Program-made: the position numbers and the translations under genes
DNA from: a virus
Taxonomy: Duplodnaviria > Heunggongvirae > Uroviricota > Caudoviricetes
Reading direction: 5' to 3' (one strand)
Length of the DNA: 64,000 nt
IMG/VR virus record: IMGVR_UViG_3300028591_000080
Location: 159,745 to 223,744 of that record
The notes under the pieces: model-generated
Databases searched by the model: none
Seen by the model: the letters and a program-made list of their open reading frames with translations, nothing else
What the model was told of the DNA's origin: nothing
In this document: positions 7,672 through 44,648 of the stretch, piece by piece
Layout: each line of letters starts with the position of its first letter
Numbering within the stretch: position 1 is the first letter of the stretch

Positions 7672-7712
7672 AAATGCAAAAAAAAAGAAGTCCTAACCGA
7701 ACTGGACTTCTT
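7672..7712 (-). terminator. intrinsic terminator (stem aagaagtcc/ggacttctt, then a 9-nt T-run on the minus strand)
   Basis: Hairpin followed by a T-run, read directly; ends the 7862..8641 transcription unit. Confidence 0.55.
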
Positions 7713-7861
7713 CTTATAGTTTTTACTAATAGTTAGAATGAGATTAGTCTGAATCGCATTTAATAGAAAGGAGGAATTATTGACACTATTAGTCGGGTAT
7801 TATTAAGGAATATTTTAATGAAATAAGTTAAAGTTAACTTACATTATATTATACAATATCT

Positions 7862-8641: not shown

Positions 8642-8721
8642 AATTACTAATTCCTCCTTTCACTCATATTTTTATTACATTATCATTATAACATAAAAAG
8701 GATATTATGTAAATACCCTTT

Positions 8722-9546: not shown

Positions 9547-9568
9547 TCGAATTCACCTCGTTTTAGGT

Positions 9569-10450: not shown

Positions 10451-10487
10451 TAATAATTTAAATTTTTTGTGTAAAAACTAGCCTACA

Positions 10488-10889
10488 CTAGTTAAAAGTG
10501 TAGGTAGTCTTTTGTGTTGCTTTCTTGTTGTGAGCACGCTTATCTGCAATCTTCTCAATGTCTAAAGTACCATTAGCTAACTTAGCCATATAAGATGCAT
10601 TAAGTCTTATTTGCTTAACAAACTTACCATCTGATGTAGGTCTTTCTAATAAATAGTAATAACCTCTATGATATGCATACTTTGCTCCTGCTCCTTGAAC
10701 AGTTGCAACTCCAATATGTGTTACTGTCCATCCTTCATAAGTATTACCTACATACTTTGAAGTTCTAGGCTTTCTAGCCATTAAATCTCTTGAACCAAAT
10801 TTTCTTGCCATTTTAATCATTCTCCTTTTTCTTTTATATAATACAATTTTTACAAGACTATTTAATATCAAATGCTTTTTGTATAACAT
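10488..10889 (-). CDS. hypothetical basic protein (133 aa)
   Basis: ORF; Lys/Arg-rich, possibly nucleic-acid binding. Confidence 0.4.
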   Translation of the reverse strand: MLYKKHLILNSLVKIVLYKRKRRMIKMARKFGSRDLMARKPRTSKYVGNTYEGWTVTHIGVATVQGAGAKYAYHRGYYYLLERPTSDGKFVKQIRLNASYMAKLANGTLDIEKIADKRAHNKKATQKTTYTFN

Positions 10890-11178
10890 CTAATCCACGT
10901 TTAGTTGTTTTATAATAGTATCTCTGACGTTTATCATCAGTATTAATATATCTGTCTAACAATCCTGCTCTACACATATCTCTTACTTGATGCATCAAAG
11001 GACACTTTGTATTAGGGTAAAGTGTACGTGAAGTTTGAAAATCAAGACACTTTACTAATATCTTAACAAACATCCTCTTTTTATTTATTCTAGTAAATGT
11101 TGCTTCTGTTTCAAACTTAACTCCATTCACCATTCGATAACCATAATAGTGGTCTTGAACTTGATTTAATACAAACAT
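10858..11178 (-). CDS. putative PadR-like winged-helix protein (106 aa)
   Basis: Wing-like motif R-YYYKTTKRG after a helix-turn-helix-like stretch. Confidence 0.35.
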   Translation of the reverse strand: MFVLNQVQDHYYGYRMVNGVKFETEATFTRINKKRMFVKILVKCLDFQTSRTLYPNTKCPLMHQVRDMCRAGLLDRYINTDDKRQRYYYKTTKRGLDVIQKAFDIK

Positions 11179-11247
11179 ATATTATTCCTCCTTTATCTAT
11201 CTTCATATATATTCTATCACATTATTATTGATTTGTAAATACCTATT

Positions 11248-11571
11248 TTAAATATTTTTTATAGAATATATATTATATTTATTAGAAGCAATAGCTTTTA
11301 AGAACCACTCAGTATCATTAGGATTTACTTGAGAGCTGTAAACCATCTTAGCAATTTCTTCAAAGATTGCTGCATTAGAGTTCCAATTGCAACATCTAGC
11401 TTGCTTAGCTCCACCAGTATAATTTACTACTACAAATTCCTCTGTATATCCTTGATCTTTATCCTCTAAAACTAAATATTCAAGACTTGCAATATTACTA
11501 ACTCGACCAGCTACCACCTTAGATAGATCATCGATAAATTTTATCTTTTCTTTTAATGTATCATTCAACAT
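11248..11571 (-). CDS. hypothetical protein (107 aa)
   Basis: ORF. Confidence 0.45.
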   Translation of the reverse strand: MLNDTLKEKIKFIDDLSKVVAGRVSNIASLEYLVLEDKDQGYTEEFVVVNYTGGAKQARCCNWNSNAAIFEEIAKMVYSSQVNPNDTEWFLKAIASNKYNIYSIKNI

Positions 11572-11662
11572 AATATATTCCTCCTGTTTTATTTACAGTT
11601 ATATTATATACCATTTTTATTAATTTGTAAATACTTATTTTATATTTTTTATAAAAAAGTTT

Positions 11663-12064
11663 TTAGTCATCTAATTTAAAATGTTCTAGTATTTTATTTA
11701 CAATATATTCTGCGGCTTCATAGTATTGATTATAGTGGAAAGACTTTGCATTATCATATGCTTCCTCACCATACTTATTATCGCCTGGCCAATCTTCTTG
11801 CATACACACTAAAATCTCATCTGAACCTCTAGCTTCACATACCCAAACATGTAAGAAACCTTTAACTCTATCTTCATTGTCCCAGTCTTCATTACTAATT
11901 GTTAAAGCTAAACCTGACTCACGACAATTATAGAATGGTTCAAGATAGCCTGATAACTTTTTACCATTATCAATATGCCAATCTAGTTTCTCTGTAGCAA
12001 TGCTCCAAACTCTTTCACTAACTTGTAAACTATGTACTTTATAAATACTTCTACCCATAAACAT
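11663..12064 (-). CDS. hypothetical protein (133 aa)
   Basis: ORF. Confidence 0.45.
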   Translation of the reverse strand: MFMGRSIYKVHSLQVSERVWSIATEKLDWHIDNGKKLSGYLEPFYNCRESGLALTISNEDWDNEDRVKGFLHVWVCEARGSDEILVCMQEDWPGDNKYGEEAYDNAKSFHYNQYYEAAEYIVNKILEHFKLDD

Positions 12065-12126
12065 GTCCTCCTATATCTATCTTCATATACATTATAACAC
12101 AAAAAAGGTATTTTGTAAATACCTTT

Positions 12127-12936
12127 TTACCATCTATCTTCATTTTCTTTTGGAATATATTTTCCTAATATATTTGCTCTAACCCATCTCTCAAGAGTTC
12201 CTTTGTTTACTCTCTTTGTCTTACACCATCTGAATTGACCATTATAAATGTTTCCTAGAGATAGATATTGATAATTCTCAGTTTCCTTTTCAAACATTAT
12301 ATAAGAGTAATCATCTGAGTTATTGCGCTTCCAATAATATGTATTATAATCACCTTGAGGAGTGTAGATTAATGTTTTATCAAAAGTTTTTAAAAACTCT
12401 TCCTTCGCAATTCTTTCTTCTTCATCCTTTACTTCACGTGCTGCTTTATCTTCTAGATTGCTAGCTTTATTATAATCATCATTTAATGGTTTGTATTTAT
12501 CTAAATCTTCGTTTAATACTTCTTCAATCATTTCGAAGTTTTCACATAAGATTCCCATCATTAAATACTTATTTCTTTCGCCAATATTAGTTTTATCAAA
12601 TGCACCACATGTTCCTACATTATAAGTTAATGTTCTCTTATTCTCTTCTTCCTTTTTAACTCTAGAGCTCCAAGGACGAGAGATGTGTAATGAAATGTCT
12701 GTACCAAATATTCTTTGCTCTTTTTCATCTAAAAGACCTACCTCAATATAAACATCATCGCCATAATTAAAATTAATTCTAGCGTCAATTTTTAAAGAGC
12801 AAGTGCTCAATGTCTTAAATAAAGTTGTCCACTTTTCTTTTAATTGATCCTGCATAGCTTTCACAGGTTCCCATTTCTTTTGAGCTAATGCTGTAGCTGC
12901 CTCAAGTTGTAATTTTAATTCATCTAATTTTGTCAT
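12127..12936 (-). CDS. hypothetical protein (269 aa)
   Basis: ORF. Confidence 0.5.
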   Translation of the reverse strand: MTKLDELKLQLEAATALAQKKWEPVKAMQDQLKEKWTTLFKTLSTCSLKIDARINFNYGDDVYIEVGLLDEKEQRIFGTDISLHISRPWSSRVKKEEENKRTLTYNVGTCGAFDKTNIGERNKYLMMGILCENFEMIEEVLNEDLDKYKPLNDDYNKASNLEDKAAREVKDEEERIAKEEFLKTFDKTLIYTPQGDYNTYYWKRNNSDDYSYIMFEKETENYQYLSLGNIYNGQFRWCKTKRVNKGTLERWVRANILGKYIPKENEDRW

Positions 12937-13016
12937 AATAAATATTCCTCCTATCTTTATTACAATTACATTATATCACAAAAAAAGAGGTTTGTAAATA
13001 CCTCTTTTAATATTTT

Positions 13017-13205
13017 TTAATAAATTATATCTTCAATTACTTCCCAATCTGAATTCCTATGAGTTACCCAGAAATCATGTTTGTCTGCATCATTCTTATG
13101 TTCTTCATAAAACTTTAATGCTGACTTACGAGTGTAGAAATCTCGAGACTCATAATCTCCATCTTCTTTATACCACAGTACTTCAAATCTAGGTTCTCTT
13201 GGCAT
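13017..13205 (-). CDS. hypothetical protein (62 aa)
   Basis: ORF. Confidence 0.4.
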   Translation of the reverse strand: MPREPRFEVLWYKEDGDYESRDFYTRKSALKFYEEHKNDADKHDFWVTHRNSDWEVIEDIIY

Positions 13206-13220
13206 GTACTAAGTTCCTCC

Positions 13221-13583
13221 TTAAATTACATATGATGTTTCAAAAATCTTTCCTTCATCGAATTCACCGAATGATTGTGTCACAATAATAGTTCTTACTT
13301 CTATTACTAACTCTTTTGTTCCGACAGGAGGTTTTCCAAGCACGTCATAAATATCTTTAATAGATATTGATAATGCATAAGCCTTAGCATCTTCGACGTG
13401 ACTAAAAGTTTTTAGTTCTTTTTCATATTCCAATGGCTCTCTTGTCACATCGCAACCGTACACATAGACACTATACTTAGTGTCATATGCAACGTCGATG
13501 CCTTCTGGAATTACTCTTTCATCCTCTTCATCATCAAAACTAATATCTAGATCTTCATCTTCAGTTATAATTGGTTCTACCAT
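13221..13583 (-). CDS. hypothetical acidic protein (120 aa)
   Basis: ORF. Confidence 0.45.
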   Translation of the reverse strand: MVEPIITEDEDLDISFDDEEDERVIPEGIDVAYDTKYSVYVYGCDVTREPLEYEKELKTFSHVEDAKAYALSISIKDIYDVLGKPPVGTKELVIEVRTIIVTQSFGEFDEGKIFETSYVI

Positions 13584-13585
13584 TT

Positions 13586-14140
13586 TTATTCTCCTGAGGC
13601 TAAAGTATATTTATGTTGATAAAGATAATTAATCATATCTGACACATCATATTTATCTGTATCACATAAGGTCTTTATTGCTGCATAAATACTCTTTGCT
13701 GTTTTTTCATAAGCGATGTTGTCTAAGCATTGTGACTTAATATAATCTACTGCTTCTTCGACAGCTTGCTCTAGAGAGATGTCAGCCTTATAACAAGTCT
13801 TTGCTGAATAAATATCTACATCAACACCTTTAACTGACCAGTCATAATAACCACCGCCAAAGTAACCACTGTGATATTTACCTTTAGCTTTAGATATACC
13901 TACTCTAGCAATGTAAGTCTTAACATTCTTACCACCGCTTCTTGTATAAATATACAAAGATGTATGTTGGTTCTCTTCGTCTGCACCTACTGTAAGTCCT
14001 TTAGGAAGTAACTTCTCAACCATCTCTTTTATATCACGAGCTGCTTCCCAAGAGCTAACTTGCTCACCACATCCATATCTACTAAAAGGCTTTCCAATAT
14101 ACTTCTCATCTAATAATTTCTTAATTTCTGCTGTGTTCAT
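13586..14140 (-). CDS. hypothetical protein (184 aa)
   Basis: ORF. Confidence 0.5.
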   Translation of the reverse strand: MNTAEIKKLLDEKYIGKPFSRYGCGEQVSSWEAARDIKEMVEKLLPKGLTVGADEENQHTSLYIYTRSGGKNVKTYIARVGISKAKGKYHSGYFGGGYYDWSVKGVDVDIYSAKTCYKADISLEQAVEEAVDYIKSQCLDNIAYEKTAKSIYAAIKTLCDTDKYDVSDMINYLYQHKYTLASGE

Positions 14141-14203
14141 AAATCATTCCTCCATTTATTCTACTATTATTATAACATATTTAAATTAAAATGTAAATAC
14201 TTT

Positions 14204-14746
14204 TTAAAAGAATTTTACAATCTTTTTTCCATGACTAGTGCAATGGAACTCTAGATCTTCGGCAGTCTTAGAGCCTTTCTTACAGAACCAAATAGGTCTA
14301 TCTTCACCTTCTCTAGTATAAGCTTGTAATATATCTTTATTAGCTTCCCATTCCTCTTTACTAAAATATCTACGCTTAGAGTGTGAGATATCTACTGTAA
14401 CTCTCTTTTTATTATTTAGTCTCTGAATGTGCTGTCCATATGCACGCTCAATTTGTCTTCCATACTTTTGCCATGTATAACCGTGATTATTACAACCAGG
14501 ACAAGTGTGTAGTAACTCATGGAAGATTGTATTTTCTATCTCTGAGTCTTCACTTAATAATCTACTAATAGAGATTACATGATCATCCTTACCTATATGC
14601 TGACAATAGCCATTACGTCTTTCTGCTGAGTCTGTCTTAAAAACTATATTCTTAGCTATTGGAATATTAATTGCTTCGCACTTGGCAATGCAATCTAACA
14701 CCATCTTTTCTATTTTATTATTTACATCTGATTTAAAAGCATACAT
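14204..14746 (-). CDS. SprT-like zinc metalloprotease-domain protein (180 aa)
   Basis: HExxH motif FHELLH followed by CPGC zinc-ribbon-like cysteines. Confidence 0.5.
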   Translation of the reverse strand: MYAFKSDVNNKIEKMVLDCIAKCEAINIPIAKNIVFKTDSAERRNGYCQHIGKDDHVISISRLLSEDSEIENTIFHELLHTCPGCNNHGYTWQKYGRQIERAYGQHIQRLNNKKRVTVDISHSKRRYFSKEEWEANKDILQAYTREGEDRPIWFCKKGSKTAEDLEFHCTSHGKKIVKFF

Positions 14747-14808
14747 AATTATATTCCTCCTATATTTTATATTTCTATTATATCATATTTAAATTAATTT
14801 GTAAATAC

Positions 14809-15609
14809 CTAGTGTGCAAAAACTGCAGTAATTTTTCCTGTCTTTTTATAACATCTCATGCATTGGTCGCAAGTCACTTTACTTCTAACTCCTGTTTTTA
14901 ATACTGCTGGACAATGAACTAACTTACTTAATCTCTCTACATCTTCATCTAAGAAGTTGTGATTACGTCTATTAGTGCCATCATACTCAAATACATTGAA
15001 TTGTCCAGGGTACTTAGCTAAAAACTCGTCAGCTTCATGGTTCCATTGACTAATATTTATTACGAAGTTGTCTGCAAGTGTTTTACCACTATTTAATAAT
15101 TCTTCTATCACTTCATAGTTCTTAGTATAAATACTGAATATGATTTCAGGATGTTTGATTGCTAGATCGTTCCATCCATTTAATTGTTCTATGTTTTCTA
15201 GCTCACCTGAAGTATTAATTCTAAACTTAGCTATTTTATCTTTCTTAGTTTGTTGAAGAGTAATTGCCTTATCTAATTCTTCGAATAACTTACCACTTCT
15301 TAAAAGTAAAGTATTCTCACTCCAAGCTTTAGCACATCTGTTATGATGCTGTACTAGAGAGTGGAATGCATAGCAAGCAGCAGAGTTAGCACATTGGCTA
15401 CAGTGCTTTGAGCATGTACCTACTACATTAGTAATATAAACCTCTTCACCAGTTAACTTCTTATAATCCTCAGAGTCATGAACTTTCATTGTAGGTCTGT
15501 GCTCTTCATTACCAGGTACGAAGTTGATATTCCATATTGTTCTTCCTAGCTTATCATTGCCGTGACTTAAGTGTAGTCCAGCTTCATTAAAATCATATAT
15601 TGTTCTCAT
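14809..15609 (-). CDS. putative radical SAM / 4Fe-4S protein (266 aa)
   Basis: CSKHCSQC (C-x3-C-x2-C) in the N-terminal third plus additional Cys pairs. Confidence 0.35.
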   Translation of the reverse strand: MRTIYDFNEAGLHLSHGNDKLGRTIWNINFVPGNEEHRPTMKVHDSEDYKKLTGEEVYITNVVGTCSKHCSQCANSAACYAFHSLVQHHNRCAKAWSENTLLLRSGKLFEELDKAITLQQTKKDKIAKFRINTSGELENIEQLNGWNDLAIKHPEIIFSIYTKNYEVIEELLNSGKTLADNFVINISQWNHEADEFLAKYPGQFNVFEYDGTNRRNHNFLDEDVERLSKLVHCPAVLKTGVRSKVTCDQCMRCYKKTGKITAVFAH

Positions 15610-15884
15610 ACCAATACATCTCCTCTGTTTTATTACATTATCATTATACTACAAAAAATAAAAAATGTAAATACTTTTTTGATAAAAATATAAAAAAATA
15701 TTGTATATTATTATATTATACAATTTTATTATATATTATACGCGCGTGTAAAGGGTCGGTATATTATACTAAGTATCTCCCTCGGCAACTAAAAATAATT
15801 AGTCTCTTAAATCACCTAGATTGAAACATGCACTCCGAGATTCAAGGTCCGGAAGTTGCTCGAAAAAATCTGTAAATACTTTGT

Positions 15885-15900
15885 ATAATATAGTGTAAGT
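15885..15900 (+). promoter_or_regulatory. plus-strand extended -10-like element (tttgTATAATat)
   Basis: Read directly; about 200 nt upstream of the plus-strand terminator at 16095-16131. Confidence 0.3.
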
Positions 15901-16094
15901 TCTAATGACTTAGAAAAATACTGAAAAGTAAATTTACTAAGCAGCCATTCCTCCTGGCTGATAGAACTTATAAAACGACTAAGAGCGAGTGATCCTAAAG
16001 ATATAGAATTTTTCTTTATCTATAACTAATAGGTGACTCGGTACTAGTGGTACACTCTTAGGAAGTTTTTCATTCATCTTTCCTCCTTTCTATA

Positions 16095-16131
16095 GAACTA
16101 GACAATTCCTCCTGTCTAGTTCTTTTTTTTT
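16095..16131 (+). terminator. intrinsic terminator on the plus strand (gaactagaca/tgtctagttc stem, 9-nt T-run)
   Basis: Perfect 10-bp stem followed by tttttttttt, read directly. Confidence 0.55.
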
Positions 16132-16354
16132 CGCCTAGAAAATATTTAAAACCCTACCCGTAGCTAACTAAATTATTTTAGTACATTAGCTAGCTCGGTG
16201 GTCCGTGTCTCTCCAGGAAAAACACCAGCCGAATCCACTGTGATTTGGTCCGCTCATCCTCGCGCCAAAATAAAAAAGTACTAAAAACTTTTAGTACTCT
16301 TACTCTCGCGCACGCGCCTGTACACGCACCCAAAACACTGTAAATTGGAAAACG

Positions 16355-23852: not shown

Positions 23853-24893
23853 TTACTTTTTATCTCTTAATGTTTCAGCTAATTCCAATACAAGCTTTTC
23901 TGTCTTTTCCCAACCAAGACATGGATCTGTGATTGATTTACCATATACTCCACCGTCTGGCTTTTGACAACCATCTTCAATATAAGATTCAATCATTAGT
24001 CCTTTAACTAATTTCTTAATATCTGGATTGTGGTTCATACTATATAAAACTTGTTTAGCAATTCTGATTTGTTCTTCAAATTTCTTATTTGAATTAGCAT
24101 GATTACAATCTACGATACAAGCTGGATTTTTTAGTTCAGTTTGCTTATATAATTCATCTAATAATTCTAGATCTTCATAGTTGTAATTAGGTCTATTCTC
24201 ACCATGCTTGGTATTATAACCTCTTAAAATACTATGTGCATATTCATTACCTTTAGATTCGACTTCCCAATTTCTATAAATAAATGTATGAGGATGTTGA
24301 GCAGCTTTAATTCCATTAATCATTACTGATAGATTTCCGGATGTAGGATTTTTCATACCAACAGGAATATTTAAACCAGAAGCTACTAATCTATGTTCTT
24401 GGTTTTCAACTGATCTTGCACCGACAGCTACATAACTTAACAAATCATTTATATATCTATGGTTTGCTGGATATAATAATTCATCTGCAGTTGAGAAACC
24501 TGTTTCTTCTAAAACCTTCATATGTAATCGTCTTACAGCAATAATACCTTCAAGCATATCAGGTTTATCTGTAGGATTTGGTTGGTGTAATAGTCCTTTA
24601 TAACCATCACCTGTAGTTCTTGGTTTATTCGTATAAACTCTTGGAACTATAAATATTACATCTTTAACTTTTTCATAAAGCTTTCTTAATCTCTTACAAT
24701 AATCTAATACTGCGTCTTCTCTATCGGCAGAACAAGGACCTATAATTAATAATAATTTATTACTCTTACCACTAATAATATTTTTTACTTCGTTATCATT
24801 AGCTTCCTTTACTTTAACTAAATCTTCTCTTAATGGAAACATCTCTTTAATTTCCATTGGTATTGGAAGCTTACGTTTAAATTCCATATTCAT
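23853..24893 (-). CDS. 3-deoxy-7-phosphoheptulonate (DAHP) synthase, class I alpha (AroG-like)
   Basis: Collinear with E. coli AroG: LLLIIGPCS, KPRTT, GARSVENQEHR, CIVDCNHANS, GKSITDPCLGWE. Confidence 0.8.
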   Translation of the reverse strand: MNMEFKRKLPIPMEIKEMFPLREDLVKVKEANDNEVKNIISGKSNKLLLIIGPCSADREDAVLDYCKRLRKLYEKVKDVIFIVPRVYTNKPRTTGDGYKGLLHQPNPTDKPDMLEGIIAVRRLHMKVLEETGFSTADELLYPANHRYINDLLSYVAVGARSVENQEHRLVASGLNIPVGMKNPTSGNLSVMINGIKAAQHPHTFIYRNWEVESKGNEYAHSILRGYNTKHGENRPNYNYEDLELLDELYKQTELKNPACIVDCNHANSNKKFEEQIRIAKQVLYSMNHNPDIKKLVKGLMIESYIEDGCQKPDGGVYGKSITDPCLGWEKTEKLVLELAETLRDKK

Positions 24894-27159: not shown

Positions 27160-27233
27160 AATTATTCCTCCAATTATTTTATATATTTATTATACAACAA
27201 AAAAAGGTATATGTAAATACCTTTTTATAATTT

Positions 27234-28081: not shown

Positions 28082-28117
28082 GAGTATATCTCCAATTACA
28101 TTATAATATACAACTTA

Positions 28118-28555
28118 TTATTTTCTATTTCTTTTATTTATATATAACTTTTTATCTGCATCTAAAAGAGCTTCATCAAAAGAATTATATATAGTTTTAA
28201 TTGAAGTTCCAAAACTGAAAGTAAAATTAGTTAATGTTTTAAATTCTCTTTGATATAGTTCAAAATTAATTTTTTCTTTATGTATAATAATGAATTCATC
28301 TCCACCATACCTACATAAATAATTAATCGCTGGGTCTTGTTTTAAAACATCAATAAATTGTTTTAAAGCTCGGTCTCCAGCGACATGTCCTAAATCATCA
28401 TTTATCTTTTTAAAATTATCAATATCAATAACTGAAATATATACTTGTTTATTTTCTAATTTATTTTTTAGTTTATTTTCAATAAAATTTCTGTTATAAC
28501 AATCACACAGTAAATCGTAATAGGCTAATTTTTTATATTTAAAATAATGGATCAT
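28118..28555 (-). CDS. minimal GGDEF-domain protein (putative diguanylate cyclase-like, 145 aa)
   Basis: DIDNFKKINDDLGHVAGDRAL and RYGGDEFII match the GGDEF signature blocks. Confidence 0.6.
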   Translation of the reverse strand: MIHYFKYKKLAYYDLLCDCYNRNFIENKLKNKLENKQVYISVIDIDNFKKINDDLGHVAGDRALKQFIDVLKQDPAINYLCRYGGDEFIIIHKEKINFELYQREFKTLTNFTFSFGTSIKTIYNSFDEALLDADKKLYINKRNRK

Positions 28556-28609
28556 GTTAAGTATTCTCCAATCTATTTAGGATACTTAATTTAGCTTATC
28601 GACTAAAAA

Positions 28610-28855: not shown

Positions 28856-29035
28856 TAATTTTTCTCCTCTACATTTTTTTCTAAGTATTCAAATATCTCT
28901 TCAATCTTTTCTGTTGGAGATACTTTATATAAATCTTCTCTATTATATTTTTCAATAATTTTATTTAATCTATTATAATTATTATTGCTCAAACCAGCTC
29001 TAGACATAAAATAAACAATCTCTAAAATATCCATA

Positions 29036-29254
29036 TTACTTTCCTAACTCATTTAATTTATAATCTAAGAATGCTTCAATATCACAATGATCAGATGCGT
29101 TTAATACACCTTTATCATATAAATTTAAAGCTATAGTTTTTAATAATTCAATTAACTCAATCGAGCTTTCAGATCCTTCTAAAGCTTGATATAAAAACTT
29201 AGTTAATTTTTCATTAAACATTTTAGTCTCCCCAATTAGATTGATACTCAGCAA
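29036..29254 (-). CDS. hypothetical protein (72 aa)
   Basis: ORF. Confidence 0.4.
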   Translation of the reverse strand: MLSINLIGETKMFNEKLTKFLYQALEGSESSIELIELLKTIALNLYDKGVLNASDHCDIEAFLDYKLNELGK

Positions 29255-29966
29255 TTAAAGCGAAATATCTATTAATATCATCTTGTCTAGCTTTCCAAGC
29301 TTCTTCAAAACGTCTAGTGTACTCAGCGTGATTTTCTTCTTCAGATTTTCCATTGATCCATTCACCAGAATAAGCTACATGAACATCTTTTTCTGTTAAA
29401 TTATTAGCTTCTAACCATTCAGCTACGCTTCTAGTATCTTTATCTTTAATAAATTCTTTACGCATTTCAAAAGCTTCTTTTGACATAGGATCATCTAAGT
29501 ATAATTCAGCTGGAGATATAATATCTTCAAACATACCTCTATTATATAACTTTACTAATAACTCTGCATCTTTAATTGCTTTACCTTTATATATAAGAGT
29601 TATAGAACATTCATTTTCTCTTAACCACTTATGAGCTTCATCTTCATATTTATCTTCTAAGATTTTATATCCAAGATTAATAACTTCGCTCATTTCTCTA
29701 ACTTGCTTAGCAATTTCTTCTTCAGCAAGCCAGCCATAATGAATCATATAATCTCTCATCTCAATAATCTTAAATTGATTTAGTTCGATTATACCATACC
29801 AAGGATATTGTCGTTTAATAAAATATTTCCAACGACTCTTCCAGCTTTTATTAACTGTTTTATCATAACCAATTAATTTATCTGCTGCTTCCTTTAATGT
29901 TTGTTTGGTTTGAGGACTAGGCTTCCACCAATGATATTTATCTTTCTTTTTGTTTTTTCTAAACAT
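29223..29966 (-). CDS. hypothetical protein (247 aa)
   Basis: ORF. Confidence 0.5.
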   Translation of the reverse strand: MFRKNKKKDKYHWWKPSPQTKQTLKEAADKLIGYDKTVNKSWKSRWKYFIKRQYPWYGIIELNQFKIIEMRDYMIHYGWLAEEEIAKQVREMSEVINLGYKILEDKYEDEAHKWLRENECSITLIYKGKAIKDAELLVKLYNRGMFEDIISPAELYLDDPMSKEAFEMRKEFIKDKDTRSVAEWLEANNLTEKDVHVAYSGEWINGKSEEENHAEYTRRFEEAWKARQDDINRYFALIAEYQSNWGD

Positions 29967-30131
29967 ATTATCACCTCTTAGATAATAGCGATTAATGTAA
30001 TTACTAATAAGATAGTCATTCCGACTAGTGCAATTTTAGGCATAACTCTATTATGTCTATTATAAGCTAAGTCTTCATTATCTGTATTATAATTATCTCT
30101 CCATTCATCAAAGCATGCATCTTGTGCTTTT

Positions 30132-31148
30132 TTAATTTTCATTAGTTGGTTCATATGAATCTCCTTCTTTTTTAATAGTTACAGTTTGAACATCCATCCA
30201 CTTAGGACGCTTTGGTTCTTTTTCTACTAGTTTCTTTCCATTAGAATAACAAATACCATCTTCAATAACTAATACATTTACTTGCTTACTCCAAGCCGTT
30301 GTAGCATCTATGGCAATTAAATTTTTACCAAAGTAAATATCTGAGTTATCTGTAAAGTCATATAAATAATGTTCATTAAACTCAGAGCAACGATAGTGAC
30401 CACAAACTAATATTTTATCATTCTTAAGTTCTTGATTAAATAATCCTGCATCAAAGAACTTATATGGACAACCCCATGCTGCAACACTCCACTCTTTTGT
30501 AGTTGCATTACGCCAATCCGGTCTTTCTTTAAACATTTGGGTCCAAGCATAATATACACAATAATCCTCAGTTAAGCCACGTTCACTTTCCCAAGTTAAT
30601 GGAATGAACGAATGTACAAAGATATACTTACCTAATTCATAATAATTAATCCAACGATCTGATTTTAACCACTTAGTAACTTCAGAATTCTTTACAGCCT
30701 TTTTAATTTTATTCCATAAATCTTCTAGTGTCCAAACATCATCACTATAATGATGTCTAACAAAATGAAAATGCTTAGGATCATATTTTAAATCATAAGG
30801 AGCTTTATCTATTATATCCATATCATTTAATTCAGAACCTGCAATATGACAGAATGTTCTAACTGTTCCATTACTAAAATCATGGCTTTGTGGAAAATCT
30901 TTATTTAGTAAATCAAAATATAATTGTTCATGATTACCACGAATTAAAATACATCTATCTTCTGGTATTGACTTTAAAAAATTATAAACTTCAGCAGTTT
31001 CATCGCCTCTATCAAAAACGTCTCCACATACAATTAAGATATGTTCAGGATTTTCTTTATCATATCCATTATCTTTTAAAGCATTTTTCATAATAGAAGC
31101 AAAGCTATGAATATCGGAAATAACAAAATATTTCTTCATTGTAATCAC
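30132..31148 (-). CDS. PPP-family metallophosphoesterase (calcineurin-like; ApaH/PrpE or Pnkp-phosphatase-like)
   Basis: ISDIHS, CGDVFDRG and RGNHE signature motifs. Confidence 0.65.
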   Translation of the reverse strand: MITMKKYFVISDIHSFASIMKNALKDNGYDKENPEHILIVCGDVFDRGDETAEVYNFLKSIPEDRCILIRGNHEQLYFDLLNKDFPQSHDFSNGTVRTFCHIAGSELNDMDIIDKAPYDLKYDPKHFHFVRHHYSDDVWTLEDLWNKIKKAVKNSEVTKWLKSDRWINYYELGKYIFVHSFIPLTWESERGLTEDYCVYYAWTQMFKERPDWRNATTKEWSVAAWGCPYKFFDAGLFNQELKNDKILVCGHYRCSEFNEHYLYDFTDNSDIYFGKNLIAIDATTAWSKQVNVLVIEDGICYSNGKKLVEKEPKRPKWMDVQTVTIKKEGDSYEPTNEN

Positions 31149-31213
31149 ACTCCTATATATTATAATACAATATTATAAAACAAAAAAGAGGCACTAGGCC
31201 TCAATTTTATTTA

Positions 31214-32785
31214 TTAGTCCTTCTTAGTTGTAGAAGGCTTCTTTGTTGTAGGTGATTCCTTAACTTCGAAAGCATCATTCTTTACTGAGTTAGAAATTAG
31301 CTTTCCACCTAAAGTACCTACCAATAATGACTTAATATCTAAGCCAGTTGCTTGTTCAAGACCAGCGAAGATTTGAGTACCGTTCTTAGTAATTTCTTCA
31401 TTAAGCTTTGCAGTATTGCCTTCACCATACATTGTAATATTACCAATATGAGACATAGCTTCAGCCATAGGCTTAGAGTATGCTTCAACAACCTTAGGTA
31501 ATACATCAGATTCTAGAATCATCTTTAATGTAGCAGCTTCACCATATTGCTTCATCGCATCAGCTTTCTTTAAGATAGCTTCAGCTTCAGCCTTACCTTT
31601 AGCTTCAATACCTTCAGCTTCAGCAAGTGCAGCTTGCTTCTTAGCTTCAGCTTCTGCAACCATTGCTTCCTTCTTAGCATTAGCTTCGATAATTTGAGCT
31701 TCAGCAGCTTGTTGACGAGCAGCTTTTTCTGCAGCAGCCTTAACCTTAGCCATTTCAGCTTGACGTTGTGCTTCTGCTAATTCAGCTTCAGCAGCCTTAG
31801 TTCTCTTGTAAAGATCCGCATCAGCAGCCATTTGTGCAGCATACTTTTCAGCATCAGCTTTCTTATTAACTTCAGCTTGTAATCTCTTTTCAGTTAATTC
31901 AACTTCTTGAATTCCTAATTGAACTTCTCTTTGACGCTTAGAAATCTCAGCATTAATTGTTGCAGTATTAATAATTTCTTGTTGCTTTTGTTGTTGAATC
32001 TTATAAGCAGCATCTGCATCAGCTCTTGCTGTATCAGACTTTTGCTTTAATGAAGCAGCTCTTAATTCATATTCAGTATTTTGCTGAATGATTGTTGTAT
32101 CAGACTTAACCTTAGCTTCATTTGCATCTTGTCTAGCTTGTGCTTGAGCAATGTTTACATCTCTATCAGCATTTGCTTTAGCAATAGCAGCATCCTTAGA
32201 GATTTGAGCGATGTTATCGATACCTAAGTTTTCAATAACACTATTGTCATCAGTAAAGTTTTGAATATTAAAGTTTACTACTTCGATACCAATTGCAGCC
32301 ATATCTGGAGTAACATTTTCCTTAACCTTATCAGCAATACCTTTACGATCTTGAACCATATCTCTAATCTTAGATGCACCAACGATTTCACGAATATTAC
32401 CTTCAAGTACTTGGATAACTTGATCTTCAATATCTTTCTTAGACTTATTTAATAATGATTCTGCAGCTCGTTGTAACATTTCTGGAGTAGAACCAATTTT
32501 AATATTTGCAACGGCATCTACATTAACATTAATGAATTCATTTGTAGGAACTGAATTTCTAGTCTTAATATCAATAGACATTAAAGATAATGATAACTTA
32601 TCAACTCTCTCAAAGAAAGGAATTCTAAAACCTGCCTTACCAACAAGTACACGTTGTCTACGAGGACCTGTGATAATAACAGCCGTATCTGTTGGAGCCT
32701 TAGTATATCCTGCTGCTAAGAATATAATTAATAAGAATAAAAGCGCTCCGGCGATACTTAAACCAATTATTAAACCTAAATTCAT
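31214..32785 (-). CDS. flotillin-like SPFH/band-7 membrane protein with long Ala/Glu/Lys coiled coil
   Basis: N-terminal TM helix, SPFH core (VIITGPRRQRVLVGKAGFRIPFFERV), then a roughly 200-aa AEAK-rich coiled coil. Confidence 0.65.
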   Translation of the reverse strand: MNLGLIIGLSIAGALLFLLIIFLAAGYTKAPTDTAVIITGPRRQRVLVGKAGFRIPFFERVDKLSLSLMSIDIKTRNSVPTNEFINVNVDAVANIKIGSTPEMLQRAAESLLNKSKKDIEDQVIQVLEGNIREIVGASKIRDMVQDRKGIADKVKENVTPDMAAIGIEVVNFNIQNFTDDNSVIENLGIDNIAQISKDAAIAKANADRDVNIAQAQARQDANEAKVKSDTTIIQQNTEYELRAASLKQKSDTARADADAAYKIQQQKQQEIINTATINAEISKRQREVQLGIQEVELTEKRLQAEVNKKADAEKYAAQMAADADLYKRTKAAEAELAEAQRQAEMAKVKAAAEKAARQQAAEAQIIEANAKKEAMVAEAEAKKQAALAEAEGIEAKGKAEAEAILKKADAMKQYGEAATLKMILESDVLPKVVEAYSKPMAEAMSHIGNITMYGEGNTAKLNEEITKNGTQIFAGLEQATGLDIKSLLVGTLGGKLISNSVKNDAFEVKESPTTKKPSTTKKD

Positions 32786-32880
32786 TTAATCACCTCTTAT
32801 TTATTTTTATTAAGTTTACATATATATTATACAACAAAAAAGGTAGAGACTTAATAAATTCTCTACCTAAATATTAATTT

Positions 32881-38220: not shown

Positions 38221-39474
38221 TTAAGCCTCCTCGTTTTCTAATCTCCAGTTGATTGCATCCTTTAGATGAACTGTATATGCTGGATCTGGACATAATGTTT
38301 TACCCTTATCATCAGATACCTTTGCAACTGGCTTACCATTTACATATTGTAATTTCATAACAATATTTAATGGTCTGACAGTAGAGTCATTTGTAATGAA
38401 GGTACCAATACCCGCAGCAAATTTCATACGACCATCTACATAGTTATAGATTTCTAAACACTTATCAAAGTCATAAGAGTTAGATACTAAGAATGTTTTA
38501 GTCTTTGGATCAACACCTTCAGCTTCATAAGCCTTAACAAAGTTATCAATATGTTCGTGGTCATCGCCAGAGTCTGTTCTAACACCCATAAATTGTCTCA
38601 TGAATAATCTCTTGAATCCTCTTAAGAATAACTTAGTTGTTAATGTATCTGTTAATGCAATACCTAAGTCACCTTCAAATGTTTCTAGCCATTCTTGTAA
38701 TGCAGCTTCTACTGAATATGCTACTTGAATTCCTTTAACACCTTGGAATAGCATTGTATATTCATGAGCGAATGTTCCGATAGGAGTAACACCATATTTC
38801 ATAGCTAAATAGATATTTGAAGTACCACTAAAGATTCCAGATTCACAACCATTAGCTACGATAAAATCTTGAAGCTCTGGTAAGTTTCTACGTCTTGTAC
38901 CAAATTCTGCGATCTTACCTTTAAGTGGCTCATACTTTCCACCTTTTTCAAAACCAGCAGCCTTTGCAGCCCAACGCTTAATTCCTTCATTATAAATATT
39001 ATCATAAGTATCATTAAATAAATTCCATACATAAGATACAATTGATAAAGTATAGATTTCAAATTGAGATACAATATATACTGGACCTTCAGCTTCGATA
39101 TGTAAATCTCCATTTTCATCTAATTCAAATCTAGTTAAATATCTTAAATCTAATGTAAGGTGTCTTAATAATTCTAATGCACCTTTATGTTTTCTTAAGT
39201 GACGAATATTCTTTAAGTAATCAAGCTCAGCATCTGTCCAGTGTAATGTTGCTAAGTGTTCAAACTGTCTCTTTATTTCTCTGAACATTTCTGGAGTGAA
39301 CTTTGCATCCTTTGTTCTATTAACAAAGATATACTTTGTGATATCATTTGCATGATGTTCTAATTGAGGAATAAACATATATACTTTATAAGCATCCTCT
39401 TCAGATAAATAATGGATAGCATAACCATCTTTGTAATTAATAGGGCACTTTAACCCAGCTTCTGTAATTTTCAT
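38221..39474 (-). CDS. pncB: nicotinate phosphoribosyltransferase (PncB)
   Basis: Collinear with E. coli PncB: EFGTRRR, GTSN, TPIGTFAHEY, LGIALTD, RTDSGD, KPLNIVMKL, NGKPVAKVSDDKGKTLC. Confidence 0.85.
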   Translation of the reverse strand: MKITEAGLKCPINYKDGYAIHYLSEEDAYKVYMFIPQLEHHANDITKYIFVNRTKDAKFTPEMFREIKRQFEHLATLHWTDAELDYLKNIRHLRKHKGALELLRHLTLDLRYLTRFELDENGDLHIEAEGPVYIVSQFEIYTLSIVSYVWNLFNDTYDNIYNEGIKRWAAKAAGFEKGGKYEPLKGKIAEFGTRRRNLPELQDFIVANGCESGIFSGTSNIYLAMKYGVTPIGTFAHEYTMLFQGVKGIQVAYSVEAALQEWLETFEGDLGIALTDTLTTKLFLRGFKRLFMRQFMGVRTDSGDDHEHIDNFVKAYEAEGVDPKTKTFLVSNSYDFDKCLEIYNYVDGRMKFAAGIGTFITNDSTVRPLNIVMKLQYVNGKPVAKVSDDKGKTLCPDPAYTVHLKDAINWRLENEEA

Positions 39475-39564
39475 ATTTTAATTCTCCTTAATTATTTATT
39501 TAATATAGTCATCTTGACTATTATATTATACAATAAAATTTAGGAAATTTTATTCTTAATTTCC

Positions 39565-43368: not shown

Positions 43369-43851
43369 TTAATAAATCTCATTTGTTAATAAATAACTTA
43401 TTAAATAATCATAAGCCATTTGTGCTGCATACTCTCTAACTTTTTCTCTATCATCATTAAATATTTGATATTCAAATCCACCAGCTTGAGTCATATTATT
43501 ATATTTTTTAATTAATAAACTAACATAGAATTTTCCAGCTGGAGTTCCACGATTAGAACCAGGTCCAGCTACACCAGAAATTGCCACTGCGATATTAGCA
43601 CCAGTTAATTCTAAAAGACCATCACACATTTGACGTGTTGTTTGACTATTATAAGGTCCATATCTAACTAAGAAATCTGAATCAACATTTAATACTTTAG
43701 ATTTAATTTCATCTGTATAAGATGTGACAGAACCTAGATAAACAGAACTTATTCCAGGTTCTTCACAAATCTTTGCAGATAACTTTCCACCAGTTAAAGA
43801 TTCAGCTACAGCTAACTTAAGGTTATATTTTTCCAACAATTCTTTTAGCAT
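43369..43851 (-). CDS. CinA C-terminal domain protein (PncC-type NMN deamidase family)
   Basis: LAVAESLTGGKLSAKI matches the CinA_C signature. Confidence 0.6.
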   Translation of the reverse strand: MLKELLEKYNLKLAVAESLTGGKLSAKICEEPGISSVYLGSVTSYTDEIKSKVLNVDSDFLVRYGPYNSQTTRQMCDGLLELTGANIAVAISGVAGPGSNRGTPAGKFYVSLLIKKYNNMTQAGGFEYQIFNDDREKVREYAAQMAYDYLISYLLTNEIY

Positions 43852-44648
43852 TAAATCTTCACCTCTAAATCATCAGGTTCATACTTAGGCATTAGTACTA
43901 ACTTATGTAAATTAGCTCTGTGCATTCTATCAATCTTTTCTTTATGTTCTAGATTTTCAATAACACCAGTTCGAATATAAGTATCTAATTCATCATAAGT
44001 AAATCCTAACTTCTCTTCATCAGACTTACCACTCATTCCATCGCTAGGAACTTTTTCAATTAAATCCTTTGGTAAACCTAATTCATAACCTAATTCTTTA
44101 ACTTCATGAACAGTTAAATTTGCAAGTGGTGAAAAGTCTCCTGCACTATCTCCATACTTAGTTGAATAACCAACCCAGTCCTCAGATAAATTACAAGTAT
44201 TGGCTACTCTTGCATTACCAAGAATTGCTGCAACTCCGTATAAAGTTGTCATACGAATTCTTGCTGGAGTATTAGTTTCATATACATCATTAAACTTTGT
44301 TGCATAATTAGTTATATAACTTGAGCAAGTTCTATTTATTCTATGTCTAGACTTAAATCCTTCAAATATTGATTGTCTTAACATTAAAGTAGCATAACCA
44401 ATATTTATACAAGTATAATCAATACCTAAATGCTTAACTAATTCTAATGATTTATCAATATCCTTTTGTTCACCATCTGGCATTAATACGCCAAATACTT
44501 TATCCTTACCAAGTGCTTCCACACATAAAGCAGCACAAACTGAACTATCTTTGCCACCACTAATTCCAATAACAACTGTACAATCACCTACAGTCTTTCT
44601 AACCCATTCAACTAAATCTTCTTTACATTTCTTTGCATTAAATTCCAT
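43851..44648 (-). CDS. nadE: NH3-dependent NAD+ synthetase
   Basis: PP-loop GISGGKDSSV; 265 aa, NadE-sized. Confidence 0.8.
   Translation of the reverse strand: MEFNAKKCKEDLVEWVRKTVGDCTVVIGISGGKDSSVCAALCVEALGKDKVFGVLMPDGEQKDIDKSLELVKHLGIDYTCINIGYATLMLRQSIFEGFKSRHRINRTCSSYITNYATKFNDVYETNTPARIRMTTLYGVAAILGNARVANTCNLSEDWVGYSTKYGDSAGDFSPLANLTVHEVKELGYELGLPKDLIEKVPSDGMSGKSDEEKLGFTYDELDTYIRTGVIENLEHKEKIDRMHRANLHKLVLMPKYEPDDLEVKI

Follow-up and report, generated by a model that had tools for sequence, protein, structure and literature searches.

A stand-alone GGDEF protein of 145 amino acids from an uncultivated phage, a predicted diguanylate cyclase lacking both sensor domain and I-site

The gene described here lies in a 64,000-nucleotide stretch of a phage genome (positions 159,745 to 223,744 of IMG/VR record IMGVR_UViG_3300028591_000080; hereafter the window) and encodes a protein of 145 amino acids in which GGDEF is the sole domain detected (Table 1). 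The open reading frame matches the Pfam GGDEF family PF00990 with E=7.3e-22 (78.3 bits against a cutoff of 23.8), covering profile positions 1-157 of 161, and TIGR00254 with E=1.1e-23 (83.8 bits against a cutoff of 37.4), scores that are far beyond chance. The two blocks from which a minimal phage GGDEF domain was originally predicted, DIDNFKKINDDLGHVAGD and RYGGDEFII, are indeed present, at residues 44-61 and 82-90, respectively, and the absence of a sensory domain is borne out as well, since only about 10 residues precede the single domain. The start codon is also kept in the sister strain L067. A degenerate GGDEF domain of the GdpP/YybT type (an ATPase, fused to DHH/DHHA1) was considered and rejected, there being no match to PF24898 at E<=1, an intact motif and a single domain. 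The surroundings of the gene confirm its phage origin: all open reading frames of at least 120 amino acids in the window lie on one strand, the GC content is about 28%, and neighbouring genes with PHROG matches encode an ATP-dependent DNA ligase, a dCMP deaminase, a DUF3310 protein, a NinI-like phosphoesterase and a DAHP synthase. The GGDEF gene is directly adjoined by the DUF3310 gene and by small unknown open reading frames. The window also encodes the NAD+ salvage functions NAPRTase, NAD synthase, CinA and NrtR/NUDIX, together with an HD_4 hydrolase, an RNA ligase and a CCA-adding enzyme.

The gene had been thought to be transcribed from a promoter of its own, a view that our analysis does not support. 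In the 54-nt spacer upstream of the start codon, which is 97% conserved with L067/L068, a sigma-70 scan finds no site and the phage's recurrent intergenic promoter motif, TTGTATAATATAAT, has no copy. This motif has 33 matches against 8.6 expected, a number reached by 0 of 100 shuffles, and one copy sits just past the GGDEF stop codon, ahead of the DUF3310 gene, where it would mark the 3' boundary of the unit to which the GGDEF gene belongs. The nearest upstream terminator and promoter module is probably the start of a seven-gene unit in the order Metallophos (30132-31148), 58 aa, 247 aa, 72 aa, 59 aa, 81 aa and GGDEF. Because the promoter motif is missing directly upstream and the nearest such module is this distant one, the GGDEF gene most likely closes a longer unit, headed by the phosphoesterase gene, whose cistrons would be co-transcribed. 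An 8-bp inverted repeat around the Shine-Dalgarno sequence was dropped as a regulatory element because it is no stabler than shuffled sequences (z = -1.06).

Table 1. Positions, within the window, of the GGDEF gene, its functional segments and the flanking transcription signals
Feature	Position	Strand	Basis or remark
Stand-alone GGDEF open reading frame, predicted diguanylate cyclase	28118..28555	-	145 aa, stop codon included, ATG start
Residues 2-12, short N-terminal helix	28520..28552	-	Model; mean pLDDT only 56 over the first block of 10 residues
Residues 44-61, DIDNFKKINDDLGHVAGD, substrate/metal block	28373..28426	-	Sequence; PleD-like spacing; 31-member alignment
Residues 75-78, P-A-I-N, at the position of the RxxD I-site	28322..28333	-	Offset -9 to -6 relative to the first GGDEF Gly
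Residues 82-88, RYGGDEF active-site hairpin	28292..28312	-	Direct sequence reading
Residues 141-145, KRNRK, protein C-terminus	28121..28135	-	Alignment and residue spacing
Upstream spacer, 54 nt, Shine-Dalgarno GGAG at 28566-28569	28556..28609	-	Sequence
Copy of promoter motif TTGTATAATATAAT, 1 mismatch	28100..28113	-	Motif search; sigma-70 scan match 28127->28100
Terminator-like hairpin and T-run, then TATAAT-rich promoter-like sequence	31149..31213	-	Intergenic listing; nearest upstream module

The gene is under purifying selection, with a dN/dS of 0.15 against L067 (0.04-0.20 for its neighbours), and it is kept at about 50% identity and in the same syntenic slot in the related large phages L001 and L003. 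The order Band_7, Metallophos, ~58-aa protein, ~247-aa protein and GGDEF is conserved in L001, L003 and L067. Beyond these phages close relatives are scarce. Megablast of the 10 kb around the gene against INPHARED gave no match, nor did tblastn of the GGDEF protein and of its 892-aa neighbour at E<=1e-5, and it was at relaxed E-values that tblastn recovered distant phage GGDEFs; likewise, a scan of IMG/VR with the single GGDEF protein gave no confirmed relative, whereas an alignment-based scan did. A scan of the GTDB genomes returned generic multidomain bacterial GGDEFs only, with no prophage copy and no clue to the host. The bacterial matches are at most 44% identical, save for short partial ones (48-52% over about 50 residues), and every one lies in a protein of 213-899 aa. 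The phage makes heavy use of Shine-Dalgarno sequences and carries a CBM77 module, and its nearest named cellular relatives are Clostridia; these are only hints, and the host is perhaps of a Bacillota-like type.

The AlphaFold model of the protein has a mean pLDDT of 90.9. Foldseek places WspR, PleD and SadC at the top (E about 1e-11), and the best 50 PDB matches are GGDEF-domain structures, mostly of diguanylate cyclases (TMq 0.66-0.85). As modelled, the protein adopts a palm-type beta-alpha-alpha-beta-beta-alpha-beta-alpha fold from which one canonical hairpin is missing, some 17-24 residues of the canonical domain being deleted, mainly between helix alpha-3 and the next strand. Diguanylate cyclases need to dimerise in order to work, and a GGDEF domain on its own generally has weak activity (work on WspR and PleD; 3i5b, 3i5c). 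The short helix predicted at the N-terminus directly precedes the D-x-L-x-x-x-x-N-R turn of the domain, a longer equivalent, 'IEKLYL..NLAYYD', recurs in most members of the minimal class defined below, and the stalk-containing constructs 3i5c and 6ttr are among the best Foldseek matches. This helix is a candidate remnant of a dimerisation stalk.

The block DIDNFKKINDDLGHVAGD is spaced exactly as in PleD, and the ranges aligned with PleD chains agree. In PleD, D327 binds metal, K332 phosphate, and N335 and D344 guanine (PMC7288161); the equivalents in the phage protein are D44, K49, N52 and D61. Across an alignment of 31 members of the minimal class D44, N52, G56, H57 and G60 are invariant, and K49, D53 and D61 are at least 90% conserved. 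In the active-site hairpin D86 corresponds to the metal/phosphate ligand E370 of PleD and E87 to E371; here R82, G84, G85, E87 and F88 are invariant, D86 is conserved to at least 90%, and the GG[DE]EF motif is intact in 31 of 31 members. K442 and R446 of PleD form a C-terminal phosphate-binding pair (PMC7288161). The former is matched by K141, which is invariant in the same alignment, while the position of the latter falls, by an equivalence drawn from spacing alone, on the last residue, K145, with R144 adjacent. By alignment, then, all residues for diguanylate cyclase chemistry appear to be present, the guanine-specific Asp included. The catalytic acidic residues D44, D86 and E87, whose loss the original prediction regarded as the mark of a degenerate domain, are retained, and in the family each of them is either invariant or conserved to 90% or more.

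Compared with PleD, WspR, SadC, DgcZ and DgcR, the window protein has the same fold (query-normalised TM-score 0.75-0.85, E about 1e-11), and it appears to share with canonical diguanylate cyclases the catalytic and the metal-, guanine- and phosphate-binding residues. Unlike them, it has no receiver, PAS, GAF, CZB, HAMP or transmembrane input domain, no long coiled-coil stalk and no RxxD, is about 17-24 residues shorter and is encoded by a phage. RxxD constitutes the I-site, the allosteric site of product inhibition located five residues upstream of GG[DE]EF (PMC7288161), and in its place the window protein carries P75-A-I-N78. PleD and WspR, in which an I-site is present, are inhibited by c-di-GMP at low micromolar levels. 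The motif is present in 2 of 31 minimal-class proteins, in 1 of 12 short viral GGDEFs and in 45 of 68 long ones, and since so many of the latter keep it, most long viral GGDEFs would remain feedback-regulated, unlike the protein studied here. Since GGDEF domains are not known to bind c-di-GMP at any site other than RxxD, the replacement of this motif also speaks against the suggestion that the protein might serve as a nucleotide sponge.

Proteins of this kind form what we define operationally as a minimal class: phage-encoded proteins of no more than about 175 aa that consist of a single GGDEF domain, keep an intact active site, have a shortened alpha-3/beta-4 region and lack the I-site. Its members measure 136-175 aa, and the window protein, being phage-borne, 145 aa long, shortened between alpha-3 and beta-4 and without I-site, belongs to it. 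It scores 155.5 bits against a profile of the class that was built without its own subclade, as compared to 109.0 bits when the profile is made from long viral GGDEF domains. Members of the class turn up in gut and rumen metagenomes, where they are spread over several phage lineages unrelated to one another, and cultured Clostridium perfringens phages carry them too. Small GGDEF genes are in fact already annotated in cultured phages, so that the minimal nature of the gene stands while its unusualness was overstated at first: it is a further case of the known, uncharacterised small phage GGDEFs, for none of which we found a biochemical test in the literature. Cultured examples are gp61 of the C. 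perfringens phage Clo-PEP-1 (146 aa; also in CPD4, P21, CP3 and others), Churro_042 of a Pseudomonas Yuavirus (156 aa), the proteins of the Bordetella Vojvodinavirus phages CN1/LK3 (about 152 aa) and that of the Bacillus phage SP-15 (183 aa), those of the Yuavirus and the Vojvodinavirus being annotated as diguanylate cyclases. Like the window protein they are single-domain proteins, of about 145-185 aa, encoded by tailed phages among early, replication or host-interaction genes. In an alignment Clo-PEP-1 gp61 and Churro_042 show an intact D-x-D-x-[FL]-K-x-x-N-D-x-x-G-H-x-x-G-D block and a shortened C-terminal half.

These cultured-phage proteins nevertheless share only about 30% identity with the window protein, with tblastn E-values weaker than 1e-5, and they come from siphoviruses of about 50-60 kb that infect other hosts, whereas the window phage is much larger and uncultivated. 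Clo-PEP-1 gp61 scores higher against the minimal-class profile (94.3 bits) than against the generic one (80.5 bits). Churro_042 shows no such preference (74.0 versus 73.0 bits) and carries SGDEF instead of GGDEF, and for these reasons it may represent an independent reduction. Longer viral proteins are also known, such as gp350 of Bacillus phage G ('probable diguanylate cyclase DgcQ'), which has 254 aa and an extra N-terminal region; this protein and the diguanylate cyclase of a Mu-like Cariaco Basin phage have been read as products of auxiliary or host-manipulation genes. Lysogens of the Bordetella phage LK3, with its GGDEF gene of about 150 aa, are hyper-biofilm formers, a correlative observation in which the phenotype is not assigned to the gene.

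Taken together, we consider it reasonably probable that the gene encodes a minimal, constitutive and feedback-free c-di-GMP synthase which reprograms the infected cell. Enzymatic activity, product, homodimerisation and physiological benefit are what we infer in this proposal. The protein would bind GTP through the canonical GGDEF residues, and two copies of it, perhaps homodimerising via the short N-terminal helix, would condense two GTP molecules to 3',3'-c-di-GMP. Infection would in this way switch on a constitutive source of c-di-GMP, the output of which would be set only by the amount of phage protein because the sensor domain and the RxxD product-inhibition site are both absent. Among the 24 Pfam families matched at E<=1e-5 by the 97 open reading frames of the window there is no EAL, HD-GYP or PilZ, searches with EAL-motif regular expressions yielded nothing convincing, and the whole window has no Rfam match at gathering thresholds and therefore no c-di-GMP riboswitch. 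Since the window thus encodes no c-di-GMP receptor, riboswitch or phosphodiesterase, the product would act via the host's own c-di-GMP effectors and shift the cell to a high-c-di-GMP state in which motility and pili would be reduced and adhesion or matrix increased. Plausible if speculative pay-offs would be that superinfecting phages dependent on flagella or pili are kept out, or that the infected cell stays attached to a surface. The need of diguanylate cyclases to dimerise, the short and low-confidence N-terminal helix, the deletion of about 17-24 residues and the Lys in place of Arg at the position of PleD R446 count against this reading.

But could so small a protein work as a cyclase by itself? 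It might instead depend on or interfere with a partner, be it as a heterodimer with a host cyclase or a poison of it, or as an enzyme in need of an activator, from phage or host, in the manner of SiaC and SiaD. The protein has neither a dimerisation nor a sensor domain, its N-terminal helix comprises only about 11 residues and is modelled with low confidence, the SiaD-SiaC complex 7e6g is among the Foldseek matches, and a protein of about 247 aa is conserved upstream in three related phages. Yet no partner gene is common to the minimal-GGDEF loci of the three phage lineages examined, and the catalytic and substrate-binding residues are fully conserved across the class. The latter speaks for chemistry carried out by the protein itself, since a pure poison subunit would not need N52, D61 or K141, and we therefore regard such dependence on a partner as unlikely.

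Decidedly less likely, in our view, is interference with host immunity, in which the product of the enzyme would jam, pre-empt or decoy CBASS, STING-type or Panoptes-like signalling. The window is rich in functions of the counter-defence type (NAD+ salvage, RNA ligase, CCA-adding enzyme and HD_4 hydrolase), and minimal palm-domain cyclases do act in the conflict between phage and host. The small, sensor-less palm cyclase mCpol of the Panoptes (mCpol/OptS) system constitutively produces cyclic dinucleotides and is superimposable on the GGDEF domain of PleD. It resembles the window protein in being a very small stand-alone palm-domain cyclase, in our case a predicted one, without sensor. mCpol, however, is a bacterial defence component encoded beside a 2TM effector, nearly lacks the GGDEF motif, and converts ATP to 2',3'-c-di-AMP and related products. 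The GGDEF motif of the window protein is intact and it has no match to PF22335 (Cas10-Cmr2_palm2) at E<=1; no mCpol or Cas10 palm is found among its best 50 PDB matches, nor an effector gene adjacent to it, and an mCpol/Cas10 identity was rejected on these grounds. The gene has no match in PADLOC and hence cannot be filed as a known defence component, and neither an effector nor a sponge gene was found linked to it. The protein is a canonical GGDEF with a guanine-type specificity residue, while the Panoptes signals are 2',3'-linked dinucleotides containing adenine and lie outside GGDEF chemistry. Moreover, in hosts with c-di-GMP-responsive STING effectors the synthesis of c-di-GMP would be harmful to the phage.

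The original prediction had left open whether c-di-GMP or another cyclic dinucleotide is made, and of the two c-di-GMP is the better supported. In the Hypr GGDEFs, which make cGAMP, Ser replaces the guanine-binding Asp that is D344 in PleD (PMC7288161). This Ser occurs in two minimal-class members, P0117 and L089, which could also be cited in favour of a role in immunity, whereas the specificity position is a guanine-type Asp in 29 of 31 members, the window protein (D61) among them, and N52 is invariant. Although enzymes of altered specificity exist (PMC7288161) and the shortened domain might change the substrate pocket, a Hypr-type or promiscuous cyclase making 3',3'-cGAMP or c-di-AMP is thus very improbable. 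It is just as hard to credit that the protein is a non-enzymatic receptor or sponge for c-di-GMP or GTP, or the product of a decaying passenger gene of host origin, for even though many bacterial GGDEFs are degenerate receptors (PMC7288161) and the domain falls short of the full Pfam model, its motif and catalytic residues are intact, the c-di-GMP-binding RxxD is missing, the gene is under purifying selection and kept among phages in which its protein has diverged by about 50%, and no close cellular homologue is found among the bacterial matches.

The preferred reading, a constitutive c-di-GMP synthase, is for the window gene itself chiefly a well-supported annotation that holds little surprise. 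A far-reaching extension of it, which we consider doubtful, is that the minimal I-site-less GGDEFs are a dedicated and largely phage-restricted family of 'runaway' synthases used as a weapon, flooding the cell with c-di-GMP, or with cGAMP in the Ser variants, upon infection and thereby either shutting down pili and flagella, so that competing phages are excluded, or jamming or pre-empting the cyclic-dinucleotide immune signalling of the host. If so, the window GGDEF would work alongside the SpoT-type HD_4 hydrolase and the NAD+ salvage genes of counter-defence, and the minimal GGDEFs would not be stray captured signalling genes. The class lends itself to study, as its proteins are small and look soluble, there is a clear assay, and phages can be had in culture together with their hosts, and it may be a source of compact constitutive cyclases for use as tools. 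In most bacteria c-di-GMP governs motility, adhesion, pili and matrix, and such surface structures are phage receptors. A cyclase that is subject neither to sensor input nor to product inhibition would be a simple viral route to force a lifestyle state upon the host.

The GGDEF gene is a 145-codon reading frame with an ATG start and a GGAG Shine-Dalgarno sequence ten bases 5' of it, and contains both sequence blocks quoted in the original prediction. Its product matches the Pfam GGDEF family PF00990 (E=7.3e-22, 78.3 bits, cutoff 23.8) over profile positions 1-157 of 161 as well as TIGR00254 (E=1.1e-23). No second domain was detected in the protein and the GGDEF domain begins ~10 residues past the initiator methionine, in keeping with the earlier claim that a sensory domain is missing. 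An AlphaFold model built with 12 homologues (mean pLDDT 90.9, pTM 0.84) gave GGDEF-domain structures, for the most part diguanylate cyclases, as its best 50 Foldseek matches in the PDB (E ~1e-11 to 1e-9; query-normalised TM-score 0.66-0.85), including WspR (3bre, 3i5c), PleD (9g85, 2v0n, 1w25), SadC (4wxo), GcbC, DgcB and DgcR.

The functional residues of PleD, whose roles are documented (review PMC7288161), align with residues of the window protein at the same spacing, and the aligned ranges against the PleD chains agree with this register. They comprise D44 (D327 in PleD) for metal, K49 (K332) and K141 (K442) for phosphate, N52 (N335) and D61 (D344) for guanine, and the active-site motif G84-G85-D86-E87-F88 (G368-F372), in which D86 corresponds to E370, the ligand of metal and alpha-phosphate; K145, adjoined by R144, is equated with the phosphate-binding R446 from spacing only. 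None of these positions is less than 90% conserved among relatives, and some are invariant. Loss of catalytic acidic residues, named at the outset as the mark of a degenerate domain, is not seen, as D44, D86 and E87 are all present. Thus, of the sites proposed for alignment, the metal-binding residues are intact and the I-site is absent: P75-A-I-N78 occupies the position of the allosteric RxxD, which in PleD (R359/D362) lies five residues upstream of GGDEF (PMC7288161). The domain is, moreover, ~17-24 residues shorter than usual, the chief deletion (12-16 residues) lying between helix alpha-3 and the strand bearing the conserved S-x-G and smaller ones in two loops. The sole element outside the domain is a helix predicted with low confidence at residues 2-12 (mean pLDDT 56 in the first ten-residue block).

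A protein of 94% identity is encoded in identical gene order in the sister strain (L067-L071), and proteins of 50-53% identity occur on contigs of two more distant related phages (L001, 86 kb, and L003, 29 kb), where their genes likewise follow a conserved Band_7 - Metallophos - ~58-aa - ~247-aa block. Against the sister strain the gene has a dN/dS of 0.15 (12 synonymous and 9 non-synonymous differences), inside the range of its neighbours (0.04-0.20); against the distant relatives the value is 0.27-0.45, with synonymous sites near saturation. Together, dN/dS and retained synteny therefore indicate that the gene is maintained by selection rather than being a passenger in decay. Within the block, the ~247-aa protein is kept just upstream of GGDEF in L001, L003 and L067 (244-250 aa), its gene directly abutting the GGDEF gene in L001, and may be functionally linked to GGDEF. 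The genes of the SPFH/Band_7-flotillin-like protein and of the 58-aa protein of the neighbouring unit are kept alongside Metallophos in the same three sequences.

Is the short domain peculiar to this phage? A HMMER search across all 1.84 billion cluster representatives returned 209,812 GGDEF relatives, only two of them at E<=1e-30, and many of the best matches were stand-alone proteins of 136-170 aa aligning end-to-end with the query. In an alignment of 31 such proteins the catalytic residues are intact, the C-terminal half is shortened as in the window protein, an N-terminal helix 'IEKLYL....NLAYYD' is conserved in most members, and RxxD occurs in 2. Against a profile of this minimal class, with the window's own subclade left out, the window protein reaches 155.5 bits, as compared to 109.0 bits against one made from long viral GGDEF domains; the protein therefore belongs to the minimal class, and a private truncation was rejected on the same comparison. 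The IMG/VR scan yielded 184 viral contigs with GGDEF relatives, the best 80 of which include 11 with complete ORFs of minimal type (<=175 aa), and RxxD was found in 1 of 12 short as opposed to 45 of 68 long viral GGDEF proteins. Neighbour clustering assigned minimal GGDEFs to at least three unrelated phage lineages and revealed no universal partner gene across them. An unrelated phage contig with a minimal GGDEF (L158) also encodes an intein-interrupted DNA polymerase III alpha subunit. A profile search of a 5.8-billion-protein collection gave ~45 top matches at E<=1e-31, nearly all of 143-185 aa and metagenomic, and four long-contig matches among them have clearly phage-like surroundings (holin and LysM endolysin; GIY-YIG endonuclease, T4_Y16D and cREC domain; DnaG and intein-bearing PolIII-alpha; a 149-kb contig with ORFs mostly of unknown kind). 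All 62 relatives retrieved from GTDB lie within proteins of 213-899 aa, which is no more than suggestive of an enrichment of short GGDEFs in phages, since the two scans differed in search pattern. Among named cellular organisms, the closest relatives come from Clostridia (Caloramator, Clostridium akagii and Haloimpatiens).

The window (GC ~28%, no tRNAs) carries all its ORFs of at least 120 aa on the minus strand. The GGDEF gene is surrounded by genes for an ATP-dependent DNA ligase, dCMP deaminase, a DUF3310 protein, a NinI-like metallophosphoesterase, SPFH/Band_7 and DAHP synthase, most of which have PHROG matches, and an RNA ligase and a tRNA nucleotidyltransferase lie farther away. INPHARED holds no DNA-level relative of the region and no protein-level relative of its largest ORF, and the phage is therefore an uncultivated one; the absence of structural genes within 64 kb suggests a large genome. 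Heavy Shine-Dalgarno use (72 of 103 genes, ~10% background), sigma-A-like promoters, a CBM77 carbohydrate-binding module in one ORF (E=1.2e-12 in the Pfam sweep) and the Clostridia relatives are hints that point to a host among the Bacillota, a phylum with extensive c-di-GMP signalling. CBM77 is known from cellulosomal proteins of Ruminococcus flavefaciens, and the module could point to a Bacillota host living in the rumen, or to a virion that binds plant fibre. Some contigs bear names, such as SHIW14 and WOLF17, that may denote rumen metagenomes. Several other genes deserve mention. DAHP synthase, the first shikimate-pathway enzyme, adjoins dCMP deaminase and shows very strong purifying selection (dN/dS 0.04 versus L067). 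Ribosomal_L9_N and Ribosomal_L9_C matches reveal a phage-encoded ribosomal protein L9. An HD_4 protein, a member of the SpoT/Mesh1-type (p)ppGpp hydrolase family, could be a second window gene acting on a nucleotide second messenger, by alarmone hydrolysis. A set for NAD+ salvage and synthesis (NAPRTase, CinA/PncC-type deamidase, NAD synthase, NrtR-NUDIX regulator) resembles the pathways by which phages rebuild NAD+ against defence systems that deplete it; L001 and L003 additionally carry PARG and NADAR genes.

Positions of features in the window and, where a contig is named, on other phage contigs
Feature	Position	Strand	Remarks
DAHP synthase	23853-24893	-	PF00793 E=5e-50; PHROG 5045 'auxiliary metabolic gene'
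TTGTATAATATAAT copy, one mismatch	28100-28113		directly after GGDEF stop, ahead of DUF3310 gene
GGDEF protein	28118-28555	-	145 aa
GGDEF upstream spacer	28556-28609		54 nt
TTGTATAATATAAT match, two mismatches, weak	28942-28955		within 59-aa ORF
247-aa protein	29223-29966	-	no Pfam or PHROG match
58-aa protein	29978-30154	-	hydrophobic C-terminal end resembles membrane helix (by eye)
Terminator-plus-promoter module	31149-31213		precedes Metallophos gene
SPFH/Band_7-flotillin-like protein	31214-32785	-	523 aa
Ribosomal protein L9	35214-35660	-	placed by size and L067 synteny (148-aa L9 gene)
NAPRTase, probable	38221-39474		size and synteny with L067
CinA	43369-43851
NAD synthase	43851-44648
HD_4 protein	52425-53024	-	199 aa, stand-alone; PF13328 E=1.2e-14
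Promoter-like intergenic examples	12065-12126, 8642-8721, 27160-27233, 32786-32880, 39475-39564	coding strand
DNA polymerase III alpha subunit	L158:2953-7194		1413 aa
Minimal GGDEF of L089	L089:8001-8381		149-aa ORF

Two distinct, highly regular promoter-like architectures were drawn from the intergenic regions of 1-16200 and 27160-63130. At 1-16 kb these regions contain GTATTTACA-N17-TATAAT, in many cases inside a terminator-like hairpin; at 27-63 kb they contain TTTTTTGTTGTATAATATAAT, in many cases right behind a hairpin and T-run. The two architectures may mark two temporal gene classes. The core TTGTATAATATAAT occurs in 33 copies at no more than two mismatches (8.6 expected; none of 100 shuffles reached 33), mostly on the coding strand. 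The spacer 5' of the GGDEF start contains neither a copy of this motif nor, in a generic scan, a sigma-70 site, and sigma-70-like sites around the gene are fewer than in shuffles (15 versus 25), so that the promoter of its own originally ascribed to the gene is not borne out. The closest upstream terminator-plus-promoter module precedes the Metallophos gene. Most simply, and in line with the conserved gene order, seven genes (Metallophos, 58 aa, 247 aa, 72 aa, 59 aa, 81 aa, GGDEF) would form one unit that GGDEF closes as its last cistron; within it, the weak match in the 59-aa ORF may be an internal promoter. The stability of an inverted repeat around the Shine-Dalgarno does not exceed that of shuffled sequence.

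From its residue pattern we predict that the window protein is a GTP-specific diguanylate cyclase. This favours the earlier idea of host manipulation through c-di-GMP. The other cyclic dinucleotides then considered are at odds with the Asp found at the specificity position. With sensor and I-site both absent, activity is expected to be limited only by concentration and the ability to dimerise. The complete list of 24 Pfam families found at E<=1e-5 among 97 window ORFs contains no EAL, HD-GYP or PilZ, and no Rfam-recognisable riboswitch was found in the window; the product would therefore act via host effectors. The best-supported mechanism is that infection would set off a constitutive, feedback-free c-di-GMP pulse, which would shift the cell to a state of low motility and high adhesion. 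What might the phage gain? Informed by established c-di-GMP biology, we speculate that competitors dependent on pili or flagella could be excluded, or the infected cell kept in a biofilm. The one experimental pointer of relevance, a hint, comes from Bordetella phage LK3, which encodes a ~150-aa GGDEF protein and whose lysogens form 2-4 times more biofilm, a phenotype that the study did not assign to the GGDEF gene.

Dimerisation is the main weak point of the constitutive-cyclase reading. Cyclases act as pairs of domains, and a GGDEF domain on its own is usually a poor enzyme. Since the window protein has no evident dimerisation module, it might depend on a partner or interfere with a host cyclase; we consider this unlikely, as no partner gene is conserved across lineages and the fully conserved substrate-binding residues argue for intrinsic catalysis. 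Interference with immune signalling would suit the counter-defence flavour of the window genes, and is made attractive by the minimal palm cyclases lately discovered in Panoptes, yet it is less probable again, given that the protein is a canonical guanine-specific GGDEF rather than an mCpol, has no PADLOC match and no linked effector. In two class members, P0117 (158 aa) and the L089 protein, the base-specificity position has Ser in place of Asp (GH..GS). This exchange is the defining mark of Hypr GGDEFs, which make cGAMP, and the two proteins are candidate phage-encoded minimal cGAMP synthases; for the window protein, with its Asp, cGAMP synthesis is very improbable. Equally hard to credit is a sponge, as once envisaged for nucleotides, a receptor or a pseudogene, in view of the missing RxxD, the intact active site and the purifying selection.

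GGDEF genes have been annotated before in phage G (gp350), a Mu-like Cariaco Basin phage, Pacific viromes, Bacillus phage SP-15, Bordetella phage CN1, Yuavirus and Vojvodinavirus, and C. perfringens phages carry them too; PHROGs places them all under 'unknown function', and our searches of the open-access literature yielded no biochemical study of a phage GGDEF. With at most ~30% identity to cultured-phage GGDEFs, the window gene is a divergent addition to these known, uncharacterised genes. At the level of the class, minimal phage GGDEFs systematically keep the active site and lack both sensor input and I-site, a pattern of which we found no prior statement in the open-access literature, and the minimal GGDEF pattern recurs across unrelated phage lineages. 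That the class is a dedicated phage weapon seems to us rather doubtful.
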